Made by a program: the position numbers and the translations under genes
Shown: positions 7,587-63,197 of the stretch, one piece after another
Layout of the letters: the number at the start of each line of letters is the position of its first letter
Position numbering within the stretch: position 1 is the first letter of the stretch
DNA from: a virus
IMG/VR virus record: IMGVR_UViG_3300027816_000056
Length of the DNA stretch: 64,000 bases
Strand: one strand, 5' to 3'
Notes under the pieces: model-generated
Databases searched by the model: none
Told to the model about the DNA's origin: nothing
Seen by the model: the letters and a program-made list of their open reading frames with translations, nothing else

Positions 7587-7606
7587 TTCTTTATTTTTAT
7601 ACTATA

Positions 7607-7635
7607 AATATAAGAAATAAAATGTAAAGATCCAA
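7607..7635 (-). promoter_or_regulatory. class A promoter likely driving the lipoprotein and tRNA array
   Basis: TTGGAT-N17-TATATT(TA). Confidence 0.65.
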
Positions 7636-17684: not shown

Positions 17685-17706
17685 ATCTCAATTATTTTAT
17701 ATTATA

Positions 17707-17735
17707 AATATAAGAAATTATTCAGTACGATCCAA
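17707..17735 (-). promoter_or_regulatory. class A promoter
   Basis: TTGGAT-N17-TATATT. Confidence 0.6.
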
Positions 17736-21895: not shown

Positions 21896-21907
21896 TTTAA
21901 ATAAATA

Positions 21908-22459
21908 TCAACCTAGTTGGTTATAGTTCCAAAAATGTTCTTTGTCTTTGTTGAAAGGATTGCCGGATTGTTGATAGTAACAATTCAAGCAAAGCATTTG
22001 CAAATTTTCTATGCGATGATTGGTTTCATCTCCATCCATATGATCTAATAGTAATGGTACCGTATCATCTGTAACTCTGCGTTCTGCATATCCACAACAT
22101 GCACACGCTTCTGGCATTATGTTCAAGGCCAATATGCGATTACGTAGCTTCCATGTAGGATAGTTTGGATATTCTCCGGAAAGTATTTTGTCTATTGCAT
22201 ATGGCCCTGATGTTGCTTTTGCAGTATCTTTTGGAATACCTACCCCGGCCTGATTGGTATGCAAATCATACAATGTTTTCCCGGTTTCGGAATCAACATA
22301 CATCTTAGCATATTTCTTCCAGGTATCAAAAGATATTTTTAAGAAGCGTGCTGCTTCGGCATTTGATTTAGTATTTGCAATTGCATATCGTATATCCGAC
22401 TCGGGAAGATTAAAAGATTCCCTGCCTCGACCATACACATATTTGTATTGCATTGACAT
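21908..22459 (-). CDS. HNH endonuclease with N-terminal HTH-like region
   Basis: CACC...LDHMDGDETNHRIENLQMLCLNC. Confidence 0.75.
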   Translation of the reverse strand: MSMQYKYVYGRGRESFNLPESDIRYAIANTKSNAEAARFLKISFDTWKKYAKMYVDSETGKTLYDLHTNQAGVGIPKDTAKATSGPYAIDKILSGEYPNYPTWKLRNRILALNIMPEACACCGYAERRVTDDTVPLLLDHMDGDETNHRIENLQMLCLNCYYQQSGNPFNKDKEHFWNYNQLG

Positions 22460-24404: not shown

Positions 24405-24427
24405 GTATATTTTCTTTTAAATAAATA

Positions 24428-25090
24428 TCACAACGTTGGAATCAATTTATAAGATTTTTGACCAAATAACAACATGGATCTGAAATCAGCTTGTTGAAAT
24501 GCATCTAAAGATCCTTTTGATAATCGATTGAATCTTTTAATAACTGATATTATTTCATTCCAATCTGTATTGCGCAATACGTTTTCTACATAATCCACAT
24601 CGATAAGCATATCTTGCACATTGTTATAATCCCATTCAATATGAACTACTGGCTGTACCCTATCTTCAGTTAAATAATCAATACATAAATCTAAACCACA
24701 TTTAAAACTAGTACTTAATATACGTAATAGTTCCGGACGTTGTTTTGCGTATTGTTTTACTTGGTTAGCTGCATCTCCGGATAAAGGATATCTAAAAACA
24801 AACTGACTATGATCTAGAATTAATTCAGATGATTCATTTTGTGTTAACCATGGCTGAATAATTGCATGAGCGCCTTTTGCAGCATCTCCATCTTTATACC
24901 ATGTAGTATCATGTTCTAATATGATATCATTATGTGCGTAATATGCTTGTTCAATTTCATTTAAATCAAAACCTTCGTGGTCAACATGACACGTACTATT
25001 TAGTAATACATGCTCTGCTATATCAGTTGGTAACGGTTTTGAAATTTGAATGTTTGCATAACTTGGTTTAAATACGTTATAACTTAACAT
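24428..25090 (-). CDS. conserved phage hypothetical protein
   Basis: 220-aa ORF coupled to upstream gene. Confidence 0.65.
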   Translation of the reverse strand: MLSYNVFKPSYANIQISKPLPTDIAEHVLLNSTCHVDHEGFDLNEIEQAYYAHNDIILEHDTTWYKDGDAAKGAHAIIQPWLTQNESSELILDHSQFVFRYPLSGDAANQVKQYAKQRPELLRILSTSFKCGLDLCIDYLTEDRVQPVVHIEWDYNNVQDMLIDVDYVENVLRNTDWNEIISVIKRFNRLSKGSLDAFQQADFRSMLLFGQKSYKLIPTL

Positions 25091-26377: not shown

Positions 26378-26399
26378 TGTATCCTTTAATATAAATATA

Positions 26400-26597
26400 T
26401 TATCGTTTAGTATCGTTTCGTTTCTTATATATTGGCCAATTACGTGTTTTTTCATTCAACCATTCAGCTCGATCATCACATCCACAATCTTCATCTAGTA
26501 TCTGTGCGATGCGTTTTGCAAGTTGATCTAAACCCGTTGCAGCAGTTATTTTTTTGATGTCGTCACCTAAACCTTTACTTTGCATATATTGATCCAT
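26400..26597 (-). CDS. small conserved phage protein
   Basis: SKGLGDDIKKIT...DCGCDDRAEWLN pattern. Confidence 0.65.
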   Translation of the reverse strand: MDQYMQSKGLGDDIKKITAATGLDQLAKRIAQILDEDCGCDDRAEWLNEKTRNWPIYKKRNDTKR

Positions 26598-27930
26598 TGT
26601 TCATTCTATTTTTCAATTGCATAATCATGGTCTGCCATTGAGCTGTATGTGGTATTTCAAACACATTACGTCCTGGAAACTGATAATCGTGTTCTGGAGC
26701 CATCATGAGCATATGGCCTGTATCATCAATTCCCATTACCGGATGTGCTACTTGTTTCATTGTTATACAACCATCTGTTGTTGAAATCATTGTGCATCGT
26801 CCTGGGTGTTTCCATTGTCCCATTGGATCTGTTACTGCATCTGTTTTGCGTATGATTTCAGCCCAACCAGCTTCATCTAGTATTTTTTGTTTGTTTACAT
26901 GTGCTGCTAATGCTTCTACAACTTCTTTTTCGTGTTTCTTTTGAAATGAAGAAGGCAAAATGTATTTATCCATTTTCAAAGCTTTTGCTAACAATGCAAC
27001 AAGACTCCCACCAGGTGTAACAGCCATTGTAGTTAGACCTAACAACTTGACTACATCTTTCATTTGATTGCGAACAAACAACCATTCTTCCGAATTTAAT
27101 TTTTCTCCATTAATGTGTTGAAGTAGCATTTTCAAAGCTTGTTTAGTCTCTGCAGACTCTGTACGCATTGCTGATGCAAACTGTTTTATTTTATCTTTGG
27201 TTTTATGTATGATTGATGAGTCATCGGCTTCATTTACAACATGTTCTACAGACAATTGGCCAATTGTTACTTTTTGTTCCAATCGATTTAAACGTTCTAA
27301 ATAACCTTTATTACGAAGATGTTTGTATGCCATGTTTTCTACTGAATATTCTCCTTCGGCTTCTAGACCCGTTTGTCGCAAATGACGAAGTCGTTGTTTG
27401 ATATGTTCAATTCGCTGTTGTATGTTCGGATCTGATTCTTTCAATGAATCAATCTCATATTCATATGGCTCTGCCTTTTGTTGTATAGCTTCATCATCAA
27501 TTGAAACTGTATCAGCACTTGGTTTATGCAACCATTTACCTCGCATCACTGAATATACTCCTACGGTTGAATGTAAATTTTCATTGGAATCCTGTGCATA
27601 CAATTCAATGTTCATGCCTTTGTATGTTAAAGGATGCGTCATGTTCCATATGCTTTTTTTGGCGTGCATATAATTTTTAACTAGATGCAGATTATCACCA
27701 GCTTTAAGATAATCAACCACAACATGTAAATCTATGTCACTATGTTCCGTCCAATTGTAATTAGCACTACTACCTATAATGATAACATCTTTAATATCAC
27801 ATTTGGTTTCTAGGAAATCATGAAATGCTTTTGCGATTTTCATAAAGCCGACACGAAGCTTGGGACGAAGTTTATCGCCTATCCAAAGTTTTGGATTGAG
27901 AGTGCTTTGTGTTTGATATTCTTGTAGCAT
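26575..27930 (-). CDS. Pol-beta-superfamily nucleotidyltransferase fused to LETM1-like and C-terminal domains
   Basis: IIIGSSANYNW...SDIDLH...ELY catalytic motifs; QMKDVVKLL...PGGS...ILPSSF segment. Confidence 0.75.
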   Translation of the reverse strand: MLQEYQTQSTLNPKLWIGDKLRPKLRVGFMKIAKAFHDFLETKCDIKDVIIIGSSANYNWTEHSDIDLHVVVDYLKAGDNLHLVKNYMHAKKSIWNMTHPLTYKGMNIELYAQDSNENLHSTVGVYSVMRGKWLHKPSADTVSIDDEAIQQKAEPYEYEIDSLKESDPNIQQRIEHIKQRLRHLRQTGLEAEGEYSVENMAYKHLRNKGYLERLNRLEQKVTIGQLSVEHVVNEADDSSIIHKTKDKIKQFASAMRTESAETKQALKMLLQHINGEKLNSEEWLFVRNQMKDVVKLLGLTTMAVTPGGSLVALLAKALKMDKYILPSSFQKKHEKEVVEALAAHVNKQKILDEAGWAEIIRKTDAVTDPMGQWKHPGRCTMISTTDGCITMKQVAHPVMGIDDTGHMLMMAPEHDYQFPGRNVFEIPHTAQWQTMIMQLKNRMNNGSIYAK

Positions 27931-27945
27931 TTATAATAAATATTG

Positions 27946-28293
27946 TTACTTCCAAAAGAGTTGTATCATTAGTAGTATGAATGCTAACAACAAAGATACA
28001 GCCGTTTTCATGTTAATAGCTTCATCTCGAAACAGCCAAGTCATAATAGCAAATATTGTAATTCCAGTAACAAATGAAACAAATCTTCCAGGCCAAAAAA
28101 CACCGCCAAATCCTTCTACAGCAAAGCGGGTTGCCTCCATAAACAGCCAAGTAATAGGAATTCCTAATGCAATTAATGCCCATTTCCATTTTACTGCCCA
28201 TGGCCACAATAATGGTCCGTTGGTTTGAATCCAAACAATGCCCTGTCCCAACAAGAAAATTGCTATGGATAATAGTATGTATTTATAGTTCAT
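27946..28293 (-). CDS. multi-pass membrane protein
   Basis: Four hydrophobic helices. Confidence 0.7.
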   Translation of the reverse strand: MNYKYILLSIAIFLLGQGIVWIQTNGPLLWPWAVKWKWALIALGIPITWLFMEATRFAVEGFGGVFWPGRFVSFVTGITIFAIMTWLFRDEAINMKTAVSLLLAFILLMIQLFWK

Positions 28294-28328: not shown

Positions 28329-28904
28329 TCATTTATCGGATTTTTCGGATGCATACTTAACACCCATTATAGTACCAATTATACTAAATGCATTGGTTAA
28401 CAAGATGCCAAACATGTTACTCCAGGTAGATCCGATGATTTGCGTGTCTTTATCGGCAAATAAGGCAACCATGTAAATAGTTGTAGTTATGAATCCAACT
28501 CCTATTATGATTATGAGAGACACTTTTACTATGAGATTGATTAATTCAAACTGAGTACGTTTCTGCATCATGTCCAAATCATCCATTGCAGCATCCCGGG
28601 CCTTCTCAGCATCACAACGTGATTGTTCTGCAGAATCCAATGCTTCTTGCAATTCTACCATTAGTTGTTGATTGGCTTGTTGAGATTCTACCAACTCTTT
28701 GTTTTGTGTTTGAATTTGTTTGGTTATTTCTAAACGTTTGCGACGATTGTCTTTGTCTTTATCACTACATGTTTGCAGATACGTTGCAAACTCAGAATCA
28801 TCTGATGAGTCTATCATTCTAATGATGTTTCCTTCGAGTCCTATACCACGCTTTTGATATAACTCTTTTAATTTTTGTTTTGTATCCTGATCAAATTTTA
28901 TCAT
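28329..28904 (-). CDS. coiled-coil protein with two C-terminal TM helices
   Basis: Long heptad region then two TMs; ATGA overlap with receiver gene. Confidence 0.75.
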   Translation of the reverse strand: MIKFDQDTKQKLKELYQKRGIGLEGNIIRMIDSSDDSEFATYLQTCSDKDKDNRRKRLEITKQIQTQNKELVESQQANQQLMVELQEALDSAEQSRCDAEKARDAAMDDLDMMQKRTQFELINLIVKVSLIIIIGVGFITTTIYMVALFADKDTQIIGSTWSNMFGILLTNAFSIIGTIMGVKYASEKSDK

Positions 28905-29338
28905 CTATATACTTTAAAAGGAGCCGTTCTAGTTTGATAACGTTGATAGTCATTCCGGAATTCTTCTAGTCTCGGCTCAATTTCATCTGATTTGATTATC
29001 CAGAACTGAGCTCCAGCTGTTTGTGCTTTTGTTTGTTCTGTTGCTTCATCTGAGGATGATATAATTCCGATTACTACGTGATTACCGTATTCAAAATTAA
29101 TTTTGCGTATCAATTCAATTCCGTCAAAACTAGATCCAATAATATTTAAATCTACAAATACGCAAGCCGGTTTTTCTTCAACCAATCCGTTTTCAAACCA
29201 ATTTTTAAACATTCGTTCTGCTTCGTCTGAACTATTAATTGCTTGCAACGATAATGTTATATCCAACAAACTACAAGCATCTTCAAATACTAAGTGAAAC
29301 AAATCTTCATCATCTACTAATAAAATTGATTCAATCAT
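28901..29338 (-). CDS. stand-alone response regulator receiver (CheY-like)
   Basis: ILLVDDE, VFVDLN (phospho-Asp), DGIELIRKI, IISSS, IIK. Confidence 0.9.
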   Translation of the reverse strand: MIESILLVDDEDLFHLVFEDACSLLDITLSLQAINSSDEAERMFKNWFENGLVEEKPACVFVDLNIIGSSFDGIELIRKINFEYGNHVVIGIISSSDEATEQTKAQTAGAQFWIIKSDEIEPRLEEFRNDYQRYQTRTAPFKVYR

Positions 29339-31145
29339 TCCCAGTTCCTAATTTAATTTTAATTTTTGTTCCTATTTCATTTTTATCACAACTTATTTTA
29401 AATCCATGTTCTGTTAATATTGCTACACATATGTTTAATCCTAAACCAGTACCTGTTTCTTTTTGTCCGGGTTTTCTGGTATATGGTTTAGACAGATGAT
29501 TGAATTCGTCTTGAGTCAAGCCTCGTCCATTGTCTTGTATAACTACATCACCATTTTCTATATATATCTTCACAAACTTAGTTGAGCTATCATTGTACTT
29601 CAATCCGTTACGAATCAAGTTATCAACCGCAGTGCAAAATAATGGTTCATTTACATCTGCATTGCCAAGATCTTCTAGTATAACTTGACTTTTGTATGAT
29701 GTTGAAGTCAAATAAGATTCTAGTATTTGTTTCAAGTCACATGTAGTTTTATTAAGTACTACGTCTTTTTTAACTAGGTTGGTAAATTCATATACTCCTT
29801 TATAAACTTTTTGAGTATGAGTCAATCCTTCTTTTATCATTTTTAAAGGAGCTTCTAATTTTAAATTTTTTATAGTATCATCAGTTAATCTTCGTTCTAG
29901 AGAATTTACACCACGTGGGATATACGTGTTGATTCCAGAATGCATATCATGTCGCAGAATCTTTGCTGCATGTTCTAAGTATGTATTTTGTTTTTCTATT
30001 TCTTGTGCACTTTTTACAACATCAGTAACATCGTATCGAATTGAAGTAAATCCTTGCAATTGGCCTTTTTCATCAAACTCAGCTTTAATATAAGAATCTA
30101 CCCAATACAATTCTCCGGACTTGTTTTTATTGGTAACTACACCATTCCATATTTTACGTTGCCGCAATACAGTATCATACATATCCTGCCAATATTCTCT
30201 GTTATGATATCCCGAATTAACTATTCGATGATCTTGACCCATAGCTTCATCGGCAGTCCAACCCGATACTTGCTGAAACTTTTCATTTACATAAGTTATT
30301 CGTCCTTTAGCATCTGTTTTGCTAACAAGCACTGATGAATCTACAAATTGTTCAAATTCATTGAAACGATTCTTTTGTTTTAATATCACAGATTCTTTAT
30401 AAGCCACTCTTTTTCTCAAGGCAATATATGATATCAACAAGATTAAAACTGCAATTACAGCACCCGTTGATACCAAATAACGGTATAAAGTTTGGCGTTC
30501 TGTTTTTAATATGGATGTTTGTTTCTTTAAAACGTTTTCTTTGACAGTTAAATCTATAACATGCTTTTCTTTTTCTAAATGATCTATGGTTTTGTCTTTT
30601 GCATCAATGACATCTTTACTTGCTTTGTTTTTTACAAGTACAGCACGTTCTGTTGTTAATTTTTGAATTTGTTTATCAATACGTTCTGCTAATTGTTTGA
30701 TTTGTGTTTCATTGAGTTGATCATAACTGTCTGGAATACTTTCTAGAAACTTAGCATCTTGTTGCAAACTTTTCAATTGTTCTGCAGTTGCATCAGAAAT
30801 CTCTGGAGTCAGTTGTTTTACAATTGTTTCGGGTTGAATCTCTACAACTTCAACATATGTTTTGGCTTTATACAAATACCAATCCGCTGCATCATACATT
30901 TCTCGATTGTAAAATGCAATTGCAATCTCTCTGCAGAGTTTAGCATTCTTTTTAGTAATAGGTTTGTTTGGAGTAGTTAAAAACTCCGGATCTAATTGTT
31001 CAATCAATCCGGTTATGTATGCATCTTCAGGACATAAAGGTATGCCTTGATCCCATGTAGTTTCTACATGTTGTTCGTGATCGAAGTGCTGTGCGATAAC
31101 TGTATATGGTAGTAACAATAAAGCTAATATGATTTTAAACTTCAT
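29331..31145 (-). CDS. membrane-bound PAS sensor histidine kinase
   Basis: Signal peptide, periplasmic helical region, TM, PAS (TDAKGRITYVN...GELYWV), H-box LRHDM, N-box NLIRNGLKYN, DNGRG, GTGLGL. Confidence 0.92.
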   Translation of the reverse strand: MKFKIILALLLLPYTVIAQHFDHEQHVETTWDQGIPLCPEDAYITGLIEQLDPEFLTTPNKPITKKNAKLCREIAIAFYNREMYDAADWYLYKAKTYVEVVEIQPETIVKQLTPEISDATAEQLKSLQQDAKFLESIPDSYDQLNETQIKQLAERIDKQIQKLTTERAVLVKNKASKDVIDAKDKTIDHLEKEKHVIDLTVKENVLKKQTSILKTERQTLYRYLVSTGAVIAVLILLISYIALRKRVAYKESVILKQKNRFNEFEQFVDSSVLVSKTDAKGRITYVNEKFQQVSGWTADEAMGQDHRIVNSGYHNREYWQDMYDTVLRQRKIWNGVVTNKNKSGELYWVDSYIKAEFDEKGQLQGFTSIRYDVTDVVKSAQEIEKQNTYLEHAAKILRHDMHSGINTYIPRGVNSLERRLTDDTIKNLKLEAPLKMIKEGLTHTQKVYKGVYEFTNLVKKDVVLNKTTCDLKQILESYLTSTSYKSQVILEDLGNADVNEPLFCTAVDNLIRNGLKYNDSSTKFVKIYIENGDVVIQDNGRGLTQDEFNHLSKPYTRKPGQKETGTGLGLNICVAILTEHGFKISCDKNEIGTKIKIKLGTGND

Positions 31146-31162
31146 GTTACTACCATAATCTA

Positions 31163-31621
31163 TTAGTAAGGTTTATAAACAGTTTTGCCGCCAGATTTAA
31201 CAGCTTTTAGGATTTGTTTGCGTTGACGTCCTTTTGATTCATATGATACATGAACCCAATCTGGATTTTTATCTGTTCCGAATTCCCAAATAAGCTGATC
31301 AAATTCTAGATTGTCTTTGATGAAGTTGAATACTTCGGCATTTGTGATATCTGTTCCATCCATATCAATATCAATTGCTTCACCGGAACAATGTTGTGAA
31401 GATGAACTTCCTCCGACAGCTTTGTTAAGAGCTGCACTTCTGTAGCCTGATGAAATGTGAATTGGCTTTCCAAAATGTTCTCGAATTGGTTGGAATACTT
31501 TTTCAGCTAATAGTTTGAAATTCTCAATATGCTCTAGTGTTGGCATATTGCTAATACCTTTACGTTTCGCAGTTTCACTTCGCATAACTTCTGCTAAAAC
31601 TAAATTTTTACTCAATTGCAT
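31163..31621 (-). CDS. peptidase M15A endolysin
   Basis: ISSGYRS...SQHCSGEAIDI...WVHVSY. Confidence 0.9.
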   Translation of the reverse strand: MQLSKNLVLAEVMRSETAKRKGISNMPTLEHIENFKLLAEKVFQPIREHFGKPIHISSGYRSAALNKAVGGSSSSQHCSGEAIDIDMDGTDITNAEVFNFIKDNLEFDQLIWEFGTDKNPDWVHVSYESKGRQRKQILKAVKSGGKTVYKPY

Positions 31622-31624
31622 AAA

Positions 31625-32086
31625 TTAATCCTTTTTAAAATATAAATTTGCTTCCGCTTCTCTACGTCTTACTAATCCTTTAAGTGTTTTACCACCAGCT
31701 TTGACCCATTTCATGAATTCATCGCGAATGGTTTCATCTTGCGGATTAGCATTAACTTTTTTCAATAGTGTTGATGATTTTAAATTTGCTGGGCCTAAGT
31801 TGTAAGCAAATGACACTAATGCATCAAATTGATTTTGATTGATATCATCTCGGCAATATGAATCAACATAGCGTTCAAAACTTGCTAACATGCTCTGTAA
31901 TAGTTCGGTTCCTTTTGTCTCAGTAATTACAGCATCAGTCATTGTTACTTTTTTACCATCTGGGTAAAATGTAGCACCATATCCTATTGTAGGAATACCT
32001 GCAGGACATTTATATGGTGCTCCTCTAAATCCTTCGAATGTTTTGATTAGTTCAATACCACCGGTACCTGTTTTTGTTATTTTCAT
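31625..32086 (-). CDS. GH24 lysozyme (endolysin)
   Basis: FEG...YKCPAGIPTIGYG, QFDALVSFAYNLG, GLVRRREAE. Confidence 0.93.
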   Translation of the reverse strand: MKITKTGTGGIELIKTFEGFRGAPYKCPAGIPTIGYGATFYPDGKKVTMTDAVITETKGTELLQSMLASFERYVDSYCRDDINQNQFDALVSFAYNLGPANLKSSTLLKKVNANPQDETIRDEFMKWVKAGGKTLKGLVRRREAEANLYFKKD

Positions 32087-32102
32087 GACTTGTTACTTGT
32101 AT

Positions 32103-32321
32103 TTATTTTTTTAATAGAAATTTTTCAGCAACATTGCCGGCAATGCAAATAATTACAATGGTTTTAACTGCATCTACTAGATCTGTAGATGGTTTAACAG
32201 ATTCATGAGAATATGAATTCAACAACATTGTAACGGCAATAAATAAAAATCCAATAAATGCAATAACTCGTTTGATAGATGTATCTCCGCCAGTAAACAT
32301 TTCTGTAATAAATTTTTTCAT
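32103..32321 (-). CDS. putative holin
   Basis: 72 aa, two TMs, basic C-terminus, directly upstream of endolysins. Confidence 0.7.
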   Translation of the reverse strand: MKKFITEMFTGGDTSIKRVIAFIGFLFIAVTMLLNSYSHESVKPSTDLVDAVKTIVIICIAGNVAEKFLLKK

Positions 32322-32345
32322 GTAGCTCCTAATATACTTTCAAGT

Positions 32346-32353
32346 ATAAATAT
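32346..32353 (-). promoter_or_regulatory. class B (putative late) promoter element ATATTTAT
   Basis: Same octamer just upstream of ORFs at 15652, 21901, 24421, 26391, 27936, 50203 and 63154. Confidence 0.5.
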
Positions 32354-50202: not shown

Positions 50203-50210
50203 ATAAATAT
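50203..50210 (-). promoter_or_regulatory. class B promoter element ATATTTAT upstream of sugar cluster
   Basis: Recurrent octamer ~24 nt upstream of first GT. Confidence 0.45.
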
Positions 50211-63139: not shown

Positions 63140-63197
63140 AACAATCCTTTATTATAAATATGCAGTATTATATTTCTTTTTCAGTGTCTAATGCAGT

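Follow-up and report, generated by a model that had tools for sequence, protein, structure and literature searches.

The timing of lysis sets phage fitness and is thought to depend mostly on a holin 'clock', to which lysis inhibition of the T4 type is the classic exception. In phage T4 the antiholins RI, in the periplasm, and RIII, in the cytoplasm, act on the holin T, and the signal is superinfection; no phosphorylation, kinase or receiver takes part. The class II holins and pinholins, such as S68 of phage 21, are hairpins of two transmembrane (TM) segments with both termini inside the cell, a small or polar face on the second segment (TM2) and a gene beside that of the endolysin. Single-domain receivers, of which CheY acting on FliM and DivK acting on DivL in Caulobacter are examples, work by protein contact. 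The LytSR system of staphylococci and Bacillus is cellular, with a multi-TM sensor, LytS, and a regulator, LytR, whose LytTR DNA-binding output exerts transcriptional control. This two-component system is coupled to the holin-like LrgAB/CidAB proteins (PMC2996381, PMC5717393). We report the analysis of a locus in a viral DNA of 64 kb (IMG/VR record IMGVR_UViG_3300027816_000056; the whole stretch is called the window) where a histidine kinase (HK), a stand-alone receiver or response regulator (RR) and a coiled-coil 2-TM protein (cc2TM), together the trio, are encoded among lysis genes. A preliminary description of this DNA had recognised here a complete two-component system inside a lysis cassette, and our results support it. 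On balance, reading the sequences of the trio and its relatives, we favour the view that it is a phosphorelay gating the membrane step of lysis through a membrane protein found only in phages.

LytSR with LrgAB/CidAB is the nearest functional analogue of the trio, and an analogue at most. In each, a two-component system is linked with murein hydrolase activity and with membrane proteins that resemble holins or antiholins, and the sensor would report the energetic state of the membrane or cell; the trio, however, is phage-borne, has a PAS sensor and an RR without an output domain, and presumably exerts its control by protein contact. The HK contains no LytS domain and the RR no DNA-binding domain, which sets the pair apart from the LytSR type, and cc2TM is unrelated in sequence to LrgA and CidA (no Pfam match). 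With RI and RIII of T4 the trio would share phage-encoded, signal-dependent control of holin triggering, the T4 holin being bound on either side of the membrane, but there is no sequence similarity, no PHROG matches cc2TM and the RR matches only generic receivers. A stand-alone receiver whose phosphorylated form would bind a target resembles CheY and DivK, and a cellular relative of the RR, encoded before a kinase that begins with the N-terminal domain (N-domain) of cc2TM, recalls DivK controlling the kinase-like DivL; the difference lies in the putative target, a new small domain on a long helix leading to a TM hairpin, and in the setting, a phage lysis cassette. The PAS domain of the HK is like those of MmoS, Aer and NifL, its flavin-pocket residues being kept with Ser in place of T18 of Aer; their outputs (methane monooxygenase regulation, chemotaxis and nif control) differ from that of the window protein, which is assigned to the FAD (flavin adenine dinucleotide) type from its sequence. 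Lastly, cc2TM resembles the class II holins in its hairpin, in the small or polar face of TM2 and in its place beside endolysin genes, and differs from them in having some 115 cytoplasmic residues of N-terminal domain and coiled coil and a far more conserved TM2. Full-text searches of the literature brought up no account of an HK-RR pair within the lysis cassette of a phage. What is new here is the union of a two-component relay, a lysis cassette and a new effector family, a combination of known kinds that is widespread in uncultured phages.

All genes of the window lie on the minus strand. The unit of interest is bounded by two copies of an ATATTTAT element (Table 1) and reads, in order, a small 2-TM holin-like protein (o72), a GH24 lysozyme, an M15 peptidase, the PAS-containing HK, the RR, cc2TM and a 4-TM protein, TM115. 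The six genes first described were all recovered on this strand, in the places and with the packing given for them: gaps of 16, 3 and 17 nt and then, between the HK stop and the RR start, an overlap of 8 nt and lastly one of 4 nt. The unit does begin at ATATTTAT as proposed; cc2TM, however, is not its last gene, because TM115 comes before the next copy of the motif.

The GH24 and M15 genes do not travel with the trio. A simple synteny of these two enzymes with the trio was expected at first and had to be rejected, other wall hydrolases standing in their place, and, since the neighbouring hydrolase differs between lineages, enrichment was tested at the level of hydrolase families. For this purpose 139 loci (designated L with a number) were grouped at 85% cc2TM identity into 53 groups, 2 cellular and 51 from phages. 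The preliminary description had named a usual lack of linkage between homologous two-component genes and lysis genes as the result that would tell against it; instead, a recognisable hydrolase lies within 1 kb of the block in 31 of the 51 phage groups, and within 4 kb in 34. Hydrolase density per 10 kb falls from 4.18 in the first kilobase to 0.73 in the next and to 0–0.31 at 2–6 kb, and comparison of the first kilobase with the 2–6 kb interval gives an odds ratio of 17.9 (p = 6e-13, 51 groups), an enrichment of about 20-fold. Hydrolases were detected from a limited seed set, and these counts are therefore a lower bound. The enzymes near the trio come from unrelated families (GH19/PG_binding_1, GH24, M15 and Amidase_2) in varied orders and orientations, and the GH19/PG_binding_1 and GH24 labels of the clustered neighbours were verified against Pfam.

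This variety is best seen in the gene orders themselves. Close relatives of the window read o72, GH24, a PG_binding_1 protein, a Phage_holin_4_1-like protein, HK, RR, cc2TM and a 4-TM protein, and a distant lineage has GH19, a 65-residue gene product, HK, RR, cc2TM, an o72-like gene on the opposite strand and Amidase_2. The L019 type shows the trio, two spanin-like genes, a GH19-like enzyme, an o72 homologue and the portal gene. An enzyme combining PG_binding_1 and Amidase_2 lies by the trio in L064, one combining PG_binding_1 and GH19 in L065, and several other loci have either a divergently transcribed GH19 gene or M15 with a holin-like 4-TM protein; M15 genes abut the trio in L074, L078 and L090 as well. 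In L065 a gene for a patatin-like phospholipase (L065:3695-4687) is inserted between HK and RR and adjoins the PG_binding_1-GH19 enzyme; its product might be a lipid-degrading accessory of lysis.

A scan of IMG/VR seeded with the HK gave 40 loci, and one seeded with the cc2TM alignment located the block in at least 503 contigs there. A collection of 5.8 billion proteins contains 7126 members of the cc2TM family at E≤1e-3, none with an informative name; at 50% identity they fall into 266 clusters, and the closest clusters of the Atlas are 100% viral. Among GenBank phages we found no relative of the 5-kb region, the HK, the RR or cc2TM, the window HK giving only generic PAS or ATPase matches to Aer-like genes. 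Within 185,579 species genomes the block occurs in only 8 contigs of metagenome-assembled genomes (MAGs), scattered over several phyla, which look like mis-binned phage contigs. Wherever a contig extends far enough, the genes for HK, RR and cc2TM adjoin one another in this one order: by automatic calling of open reading frames, RR is directly upstream of cc2TM in 121 of the 125 loci of the N-domain type for which upstream sequence is available, and three of the four exceptions are artefacts of that calling. The genes flanking the trio in most relatives share nothing detectable with those of the window. The trio is a mobile, phage-borne block. Its hosts probably belong to the Bacteroidota, since one relative encodes a type IX secretion system (T9SS) sorting domain and cellular homologues of RR and HK occur in Bacteroidetes MAGs, one of them on a contig of 967 kb.

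The catalytic parts of the HK are intact, as the preliminary description had stated of its H, N and G boxes. Across 10 HK homologues H399 is invariant within RHDMHSGIN, which fits the H-box pattern H-E/D-L/M-x-S/T-P/G-L/I, and the surrounding NTYLEHAAKILRHDMHSGINTY block is nearly so; N513, DNGRG (residues 538-542; DxGxG) and GTGLG (565-569; GxGxG) are likewise invariant. The ATP-binding domain matches PF02518 (E 1.2e-13), and PAS and HATPase_c are the only Pfam models matched at E≤0.01; no model of the HisKA family is among them, which makes the DHp domain an atypical one.

The sensor half of the protein is far more variable. Hydropathy predicts a signal-like segment at residues 1-21 and a TM segment at 219-249, with about 200 extracytoplasmic residues between them, and the periplasmic sensor region first proposed is in this sense present in the window HK. 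As the general signal a periplasmic cue was not borne out: the region is missing from nine of 10 aligned relatives, and only the second HK of L001 has one resembling it (31% identity). Most relatives have a loop-less 2-TM anchor at the N-terminus, those of L045 and L002 have no membrane segment, those of L006 and L065 an added GAF domain and those of L041 and L048 a second PAS domain. Because the PAS domain beside the kinase core is the only sensor common to these variable N-termini, the general cue for the family is, to judge from the alignments, intracellular. In the window HK this domain matches PAS-A of MmoS (PDB 3EWK, E 7e-30), Aer (8DIK, E 2.7e-17) and NifL (2GJ3, E 7e-11), and its residues S271, H306, N339 and R370 align with T18, H53, N85 and R115 of Aer, which line the flavin pocket (PMC9668731). 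The cue of the window phage would most likely be redox or respiratory state, to which the predicted periplasmic region may add a second, lineage-specific input. A second PAS subtype (GKHHxxF) occupies the position at the kinase core in part of the family and occurs also in the sensor fusions described below.

In some loci (L001:233-3368; L048:3923-7500; L140; L145) the HK gene is duplicated in tandem, the copies differ in their sensor parts and only one RR-cc2TM pair lies downstream of them, an arrangement that suggests several inputs into one output. A YceI-like gene stands directly upstream of HK in two phage contigs (L037:7270-7791 and L065:1303-1833), as well as in a cellular contig with the N-domain-kinase.

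The receiver, too, keeps the residues attributed to it at first, namely the acidic pair, the phospho-acceptor Asp, the Ser and the Lys: D9, D10, D63, S94 and K116 are invariant in 11 homologues, whose mean column identity is 79% although they come from otherwise unrelated genomes. It aligns to the solved receivers PDB 4ZYL and 3ILH, and its relatives carry PF00072 in precomputed annotation tables. The receiver domain spans residues 5-117 and is followed, in place of any output domain, by a conserved tail of about 25 residues without a family match.

An AlphaFold2 model of cc2TM, built on a 34-sequence alignment (pLDDT 90.6), shows the small N-terminal domain, a single helix (residues 37-149) that continues into the first TM segment (TM1), a short loop and TM2 (155-188). 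Among relatives the length of the coiled coil differs by about 35 residues. TM2 and the periplasmic loop are near-invariant, T170, N171, S174, G177, T178 and G181 forming a small or polar face. A structure search of the Atlas returned only unnamed viral clusters.

The domain arrangements found among relatives are the best guide to what cc2TM does. In a number of phages (for example L051-L054, P0185, P0188 and P0164) a PAS or GAF domain replaces the N-domain, giving the fusions PAS-PAS-cc-2TM, PAS-cc-2TM and GAF-cc-2TM (cc, coiled coil); five of five such loci are without HK or RR, and the fusion genes adjoin those for GH19, GH24, glucosaminidase or holin-like proteins. In contigs of Bacteroidota type the N-domain and coiled coil are instead fused to HisKA-HATPase_c, and this gene directly follows one for an RR of 65-71% identity. 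The general plan of these proteins, as deduced from their domain order, is input domain, signalling helix and output, with the N-domain in the position of a sensor domain. Since the fusions replace HK and RR, and since the N-domain heads the cellular kinase, cc2TM and its hairpin are the predicted output, or effector, in phages, and the N-domain, which is always encoded after the RR gene, is the likely docking site for phosphorylated RR. The first proposal that the 2-TM protein is an effector is borne out by the fusions.

It had also been suggested that a complex of RR with the 2-TM protein be predicted. A fold test of RR with residues 1-100 of cc2TM gave a score of 0.59 against 0.00 for the best control, with a partner pLDDT of at least 79 and runs agreeing in at least 20% of contacts. 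Calibration put 58 of the 80 solved complexes and 2 of the 110 mismatched pairs at or above the mark, and passes at or below 0.60 are few. Given the genomic prior, this modelled pairing is mildly positive and lends weak support to the complex.

The cellular version of the system consists of an HK, a 143-residue RR and the N-domain-coiled-coil-HisKA-HATPase_c protein (L056:179-3855; L061:4100-7481), followed in L056 by HTH_18, and suggests a cascade running from kinase to RR to kinase, with the second kinase under the control of a single-domain RR. One further sequence, P0201, with the N-domain fused to FecCD, was judged a chimeric assembly and ignored. We considered whether cc2TM is a spanin and rejected this, because the N-terminal coiled coil is cytoplasmic to judge by the distribution of charges and relatives have separate spanin-like pairs. 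In the L019 type the spanin-like proteins belong to clusters c6 and c5, and L002 has a lipobox protein of this kind; the candidate pairs, which match no family, lie between the trio and the endolysin gene (L019:9237-10027; L002:7209-7900), one partner having an N-terminal TM segment and coiled coil and the other a signal or lipobox. In L003, whose lineage has no recognisable endolysin nearby, a gene for a 533-residue protein with ankyrin repeats and a weakly adenylate/guanylate-cyclase-like C-terminus follows cc2TM directly (L003:10159-11760).

From these data we infer phosphotransfer, RR docking, a redox signal and an effect on the timing of lysis, which would be connected as follows. The main input to the HK would be the redox or respiratory state of the infected cell, read by the cytoplasmic PAS domain of FAD type, with the periplasmic region as a possible second input in the window phage. 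The HK would autophosphorylate on H399 and pass the phosphate to D63 of the RR, and the phosphorylated RR would dock on the small N-terminal domain of cc2TM. The resulting change would run along the coiled-coil helix of about 80 residues straight into TM1 and switch the TM hairpin between an inert and an active state. In its active state the hairpin would either be the membrane lesion itself, as a gated holin, or promote or block the putative holin o72, and the outcome would be the timing of access of the GH24 and M15 enzymes to the wall. Phages that carry the trio beside lysis enzymes probably time lysis in this manner, from the internal state of the host.

In its most specific form this proposal makes cc2TM a holin in its own right, triggered under the control of phosphorylation signals that start from a flavin-PAS reading of host redox or energy state; we put this form forward tentatively and hold it to be rather doubtful. 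Judged as a small TM protein encoded by endolysin genes, cc2TM resembles a holin in its TM hairpin and in the enrichment of hydrolase genes within 1 kb of its block. A gated holin is favoured, furthermore, by some phages (L133, L139) where no membrane protein other than cc2TM and HK was detected in the vicinity of the endolysin genes.

If lysis is gated by such a relay, viruses would possess a new way of reading host physiology before killing the cell, and the trio would serve this end in hundreds of uncultured phages whose hosts probably belong to an ecologically dominant phylum of bacteria. Were cc2TM a gated holin, very abundant uncultured freshwater and marine phages of Bacteroidota would set lysis by host physiology and not by a fixed holin clock, and their sister phages would drive the same hairpin directly through fused PAS or GAF sensors. 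A hairpin that appears to be driven by RR, PAS or GAF in different phages is attractive for the engineering of signal-controlled lysis, the N-domain, common to phage effectors and cellular kinases, may be a module on which single-domain response regulators dock, and the trio makes the role of redox or energy state in natural burst timing directly testable.

Several observations weigh against control of lysis by the trio in the form set out above. A holin-like gene separate from cc2TM, o72, is already present in the window; among the holin and antiholin families of Pfam, the PHROGs and NCBIfam none matches cc2TM, and a Foldseek search of the PDB with its model gave no solved fold at E≤0.001. 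The strong conservation of TM2 is unusual for holins and could reflect a conserved host membrane partner. On the signalling side, the window RR scores 29.0 bits against PF00072, just under the Pfam cut-off of 30.2, part of the HK family has the different PAS subtype beside its kinase core, and FAD binding by the HK is a deduction from aligned residues. The 51 groups are not phylogenetically independent, about 15 of them have no recognisable lysis gene within the fetched flanks, and in L048 the trio is followed by topoisomerase II. Some of these points would be explained if the trio were a host-physiology module, with cc2TM binding or mimicking a host inner-membrane component (of respiration, transport or a machine driven by proton-motive force) so as to tune membrane energetics and keep the infected cell productive, and with lysis genes nearby only because late membrane-protein genes cluster. 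Near-invariance of TM2 and the periplasmic loop across very different phages is what a conserved host partner would produce, a PAS sensor of redox or energy type suits such a module and the groups that show no lysis gene nearby agree with it. The enrichment, however, is specific to peptidoglycan hydrolases and decays within 1–2 kb, it holds with four unrelated hydrolase families in both orientations, and the sensor-2TM fusions likewise lie in lysis cassettes; we consider this explanation unlikely.

The predicted extracytoplasmic region of the window HK, together with the precedent of RI and RIII for a signal-dependent delay of holin triggering, would suit a sensor of superinfection or competition akin to lysis inhibition, which detects secondary infection or envelope damage and then delays lysis or blocks rival phages. 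Nearly all relatives lack the region, being soluble, held by the loop-less anchor or equipped with cytoplasmic GAF or PAS domains, and the fusions use cytoplasmic sensors. There is also no similarity to RI or RIII, and no PADLOC defence model matches o72, HK, RR, cc2TM or TM115, on which ground a defence or anti-defence role of the trio was rejected. Such a sensor, in which the periplasmic cue of the preliminary description returns, is, in our estimation, improbable. We think equally little of the notion that the phage RR hijacks the N-domain-kinase of the host and its downstream AraC-type regulator to reprogramme transcription, leaving cc2TM as a membrane sink or anchor, even though the phage RR is 61-72% identical to cellular Bacteroidota RRs encoded upstream of the N-domain-kinase (in the order HK, RR, N-domain-HisKA-HATPase_c, HTH_18) and is extraordinarily conserved. 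Phages always have an N-domain protein of their own directly after the RR, the fusions drop the RR altogether yet retain the 2TM part, and the cellular system occurs in just a handful of MAG contigs. That the trio was acquired from a cellular two-component system would also fit a moron that hitch-hikes or is decaying and takes no part in the life cycle, but no catalytic or acceptor residue varies, translational coupling joins the three genes and the block is retained in the 503 or more viral contigs counted above, across genomes that share almost no other genes, so that this last explanation is very improbable indeed.

Table 1. Features of the lysis unit and its boundaries (positions in the window; aa, amino acids)
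Feature	Position	Strand	Basis
ATATTTAT element, candidate phage (late-type) promoter at the head of the unit	32346..32353	-	Placement upstream of start codons
o72, 72 aa, 2 TM, basic C-terminus; candidate class II holin	32103..32321	-	Shape and context
GH24 phage lysozyme (endolysin)	31625..32086	-	PF00959 E 2.5e-44; phrog_7 endolysin E 1.2e-54
M15 peptidase, second endolysin-type enzyme	31163..31621	-	PF08291 E 2.3e-22; phrog_894 endolysin E 4.6e-42
Sensor HK, 604 aa	29331..31145	-	PAS and HATPase_c matches; 40 or more viral relatives
HK aa 22-218, predicted extracytoplasmic region, lineage-specific	30492..31082	-	Hydropathy
HK aa 267-379, cytoplasmic PAS, predicted MmoS/Aer/NifL FAD type	30009..30347	-	PDB matches and pocket residues
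HK aa 385-604, DHp (phospho-accepting H399) and catalytic ATP-binding domain	29334..29993	-	Alignment
Single-domain RR, 145 aa, phospho-acceptor D63 (codon 29150-29152)	28901..29338	-	Receiver alignment
cc2TM, 191 aa	28329..28904	-	No family match
cc2TM aa 1-36, small N-terminal input domain, candidate dock for phosphorylated RR	28797..28904	-	AlphaFold2 model
cc2TM aa 37-115, long coiled-coil 'signalling' helix continuous with TM1	28560..28796	-	AlphaFold2 model
cc2TM aa 116-188, TM hairpin, TM2 near-invariant	28341..28559	-	Alignments and hydropathy
TM115, 115 aa, about 4 TM segments, closes the unit	27946..28293	-	Hydropathy
Next ATATTTAT element, start of the following unit (nucleotidyltransferase gene)	27936..27943	-	

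Among the other products of the unit, o72 had been called a holin outright. Its shape, with TM segments at residues 14-38 and 47-70 by hydropathy, and its context, directly upstream of the GH24 gene as expected of a small TM holin beside its endolysin, make it a candidate holin; no family in Pfam, PHROG or NCBIfam matches it, the described holin families included. Homologues of o72 (cluster c3) adjoin GH24, GH19-like or Amidase_2 genes in other phages, and another neighbour in relatives, of cluster c14, matches phrog_199 holin and TIGR01593 weakly. TM115 (cluster c30) is confined to the closest relatives, of the L041-L044 type, and has no family match in Pfam, PHROG or NCBIfam.

The window phage is large and AT-rich, and encodes a B-family DNA polymerase, GroEL, thymidylate synthase, four tRNAs and a long glycosyltransferase block. 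The ATATTTAT element is not over-represented in the window (21 copies against 17.4 expected), and its placement is non-random: nine of the 15 minus-strand copies lie within 40 nt upstream of a start codon, the highest figure among all 56 8-mers of the same composition (mean 1.55). A phage promoter is a reasonable reading of this placement. On the minus strand inside the unit no terminator-like site was found, and a sigma-70 promoter scan gave fewer sites than shuffled sequence. Elements of the form ATATTTAT(A/T)(A/T)TAAA stand 10-30 nt upstream of many gene starts in the window (63154-63161, 50203-50210, 27936-27943, 26391-26398, 24421-24428, 21901-21908, 17704-17711 and 7604-7611), and are probably the phage's own promoter motif, dividing the window into units. 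The first gene of the unit that follows (26575-27930) encodes a 451-residue nucleotidyltransferase of the Pol-beta type (phrog_36119), with weak matches to PADLOC candidate-system models (PDC-S09).

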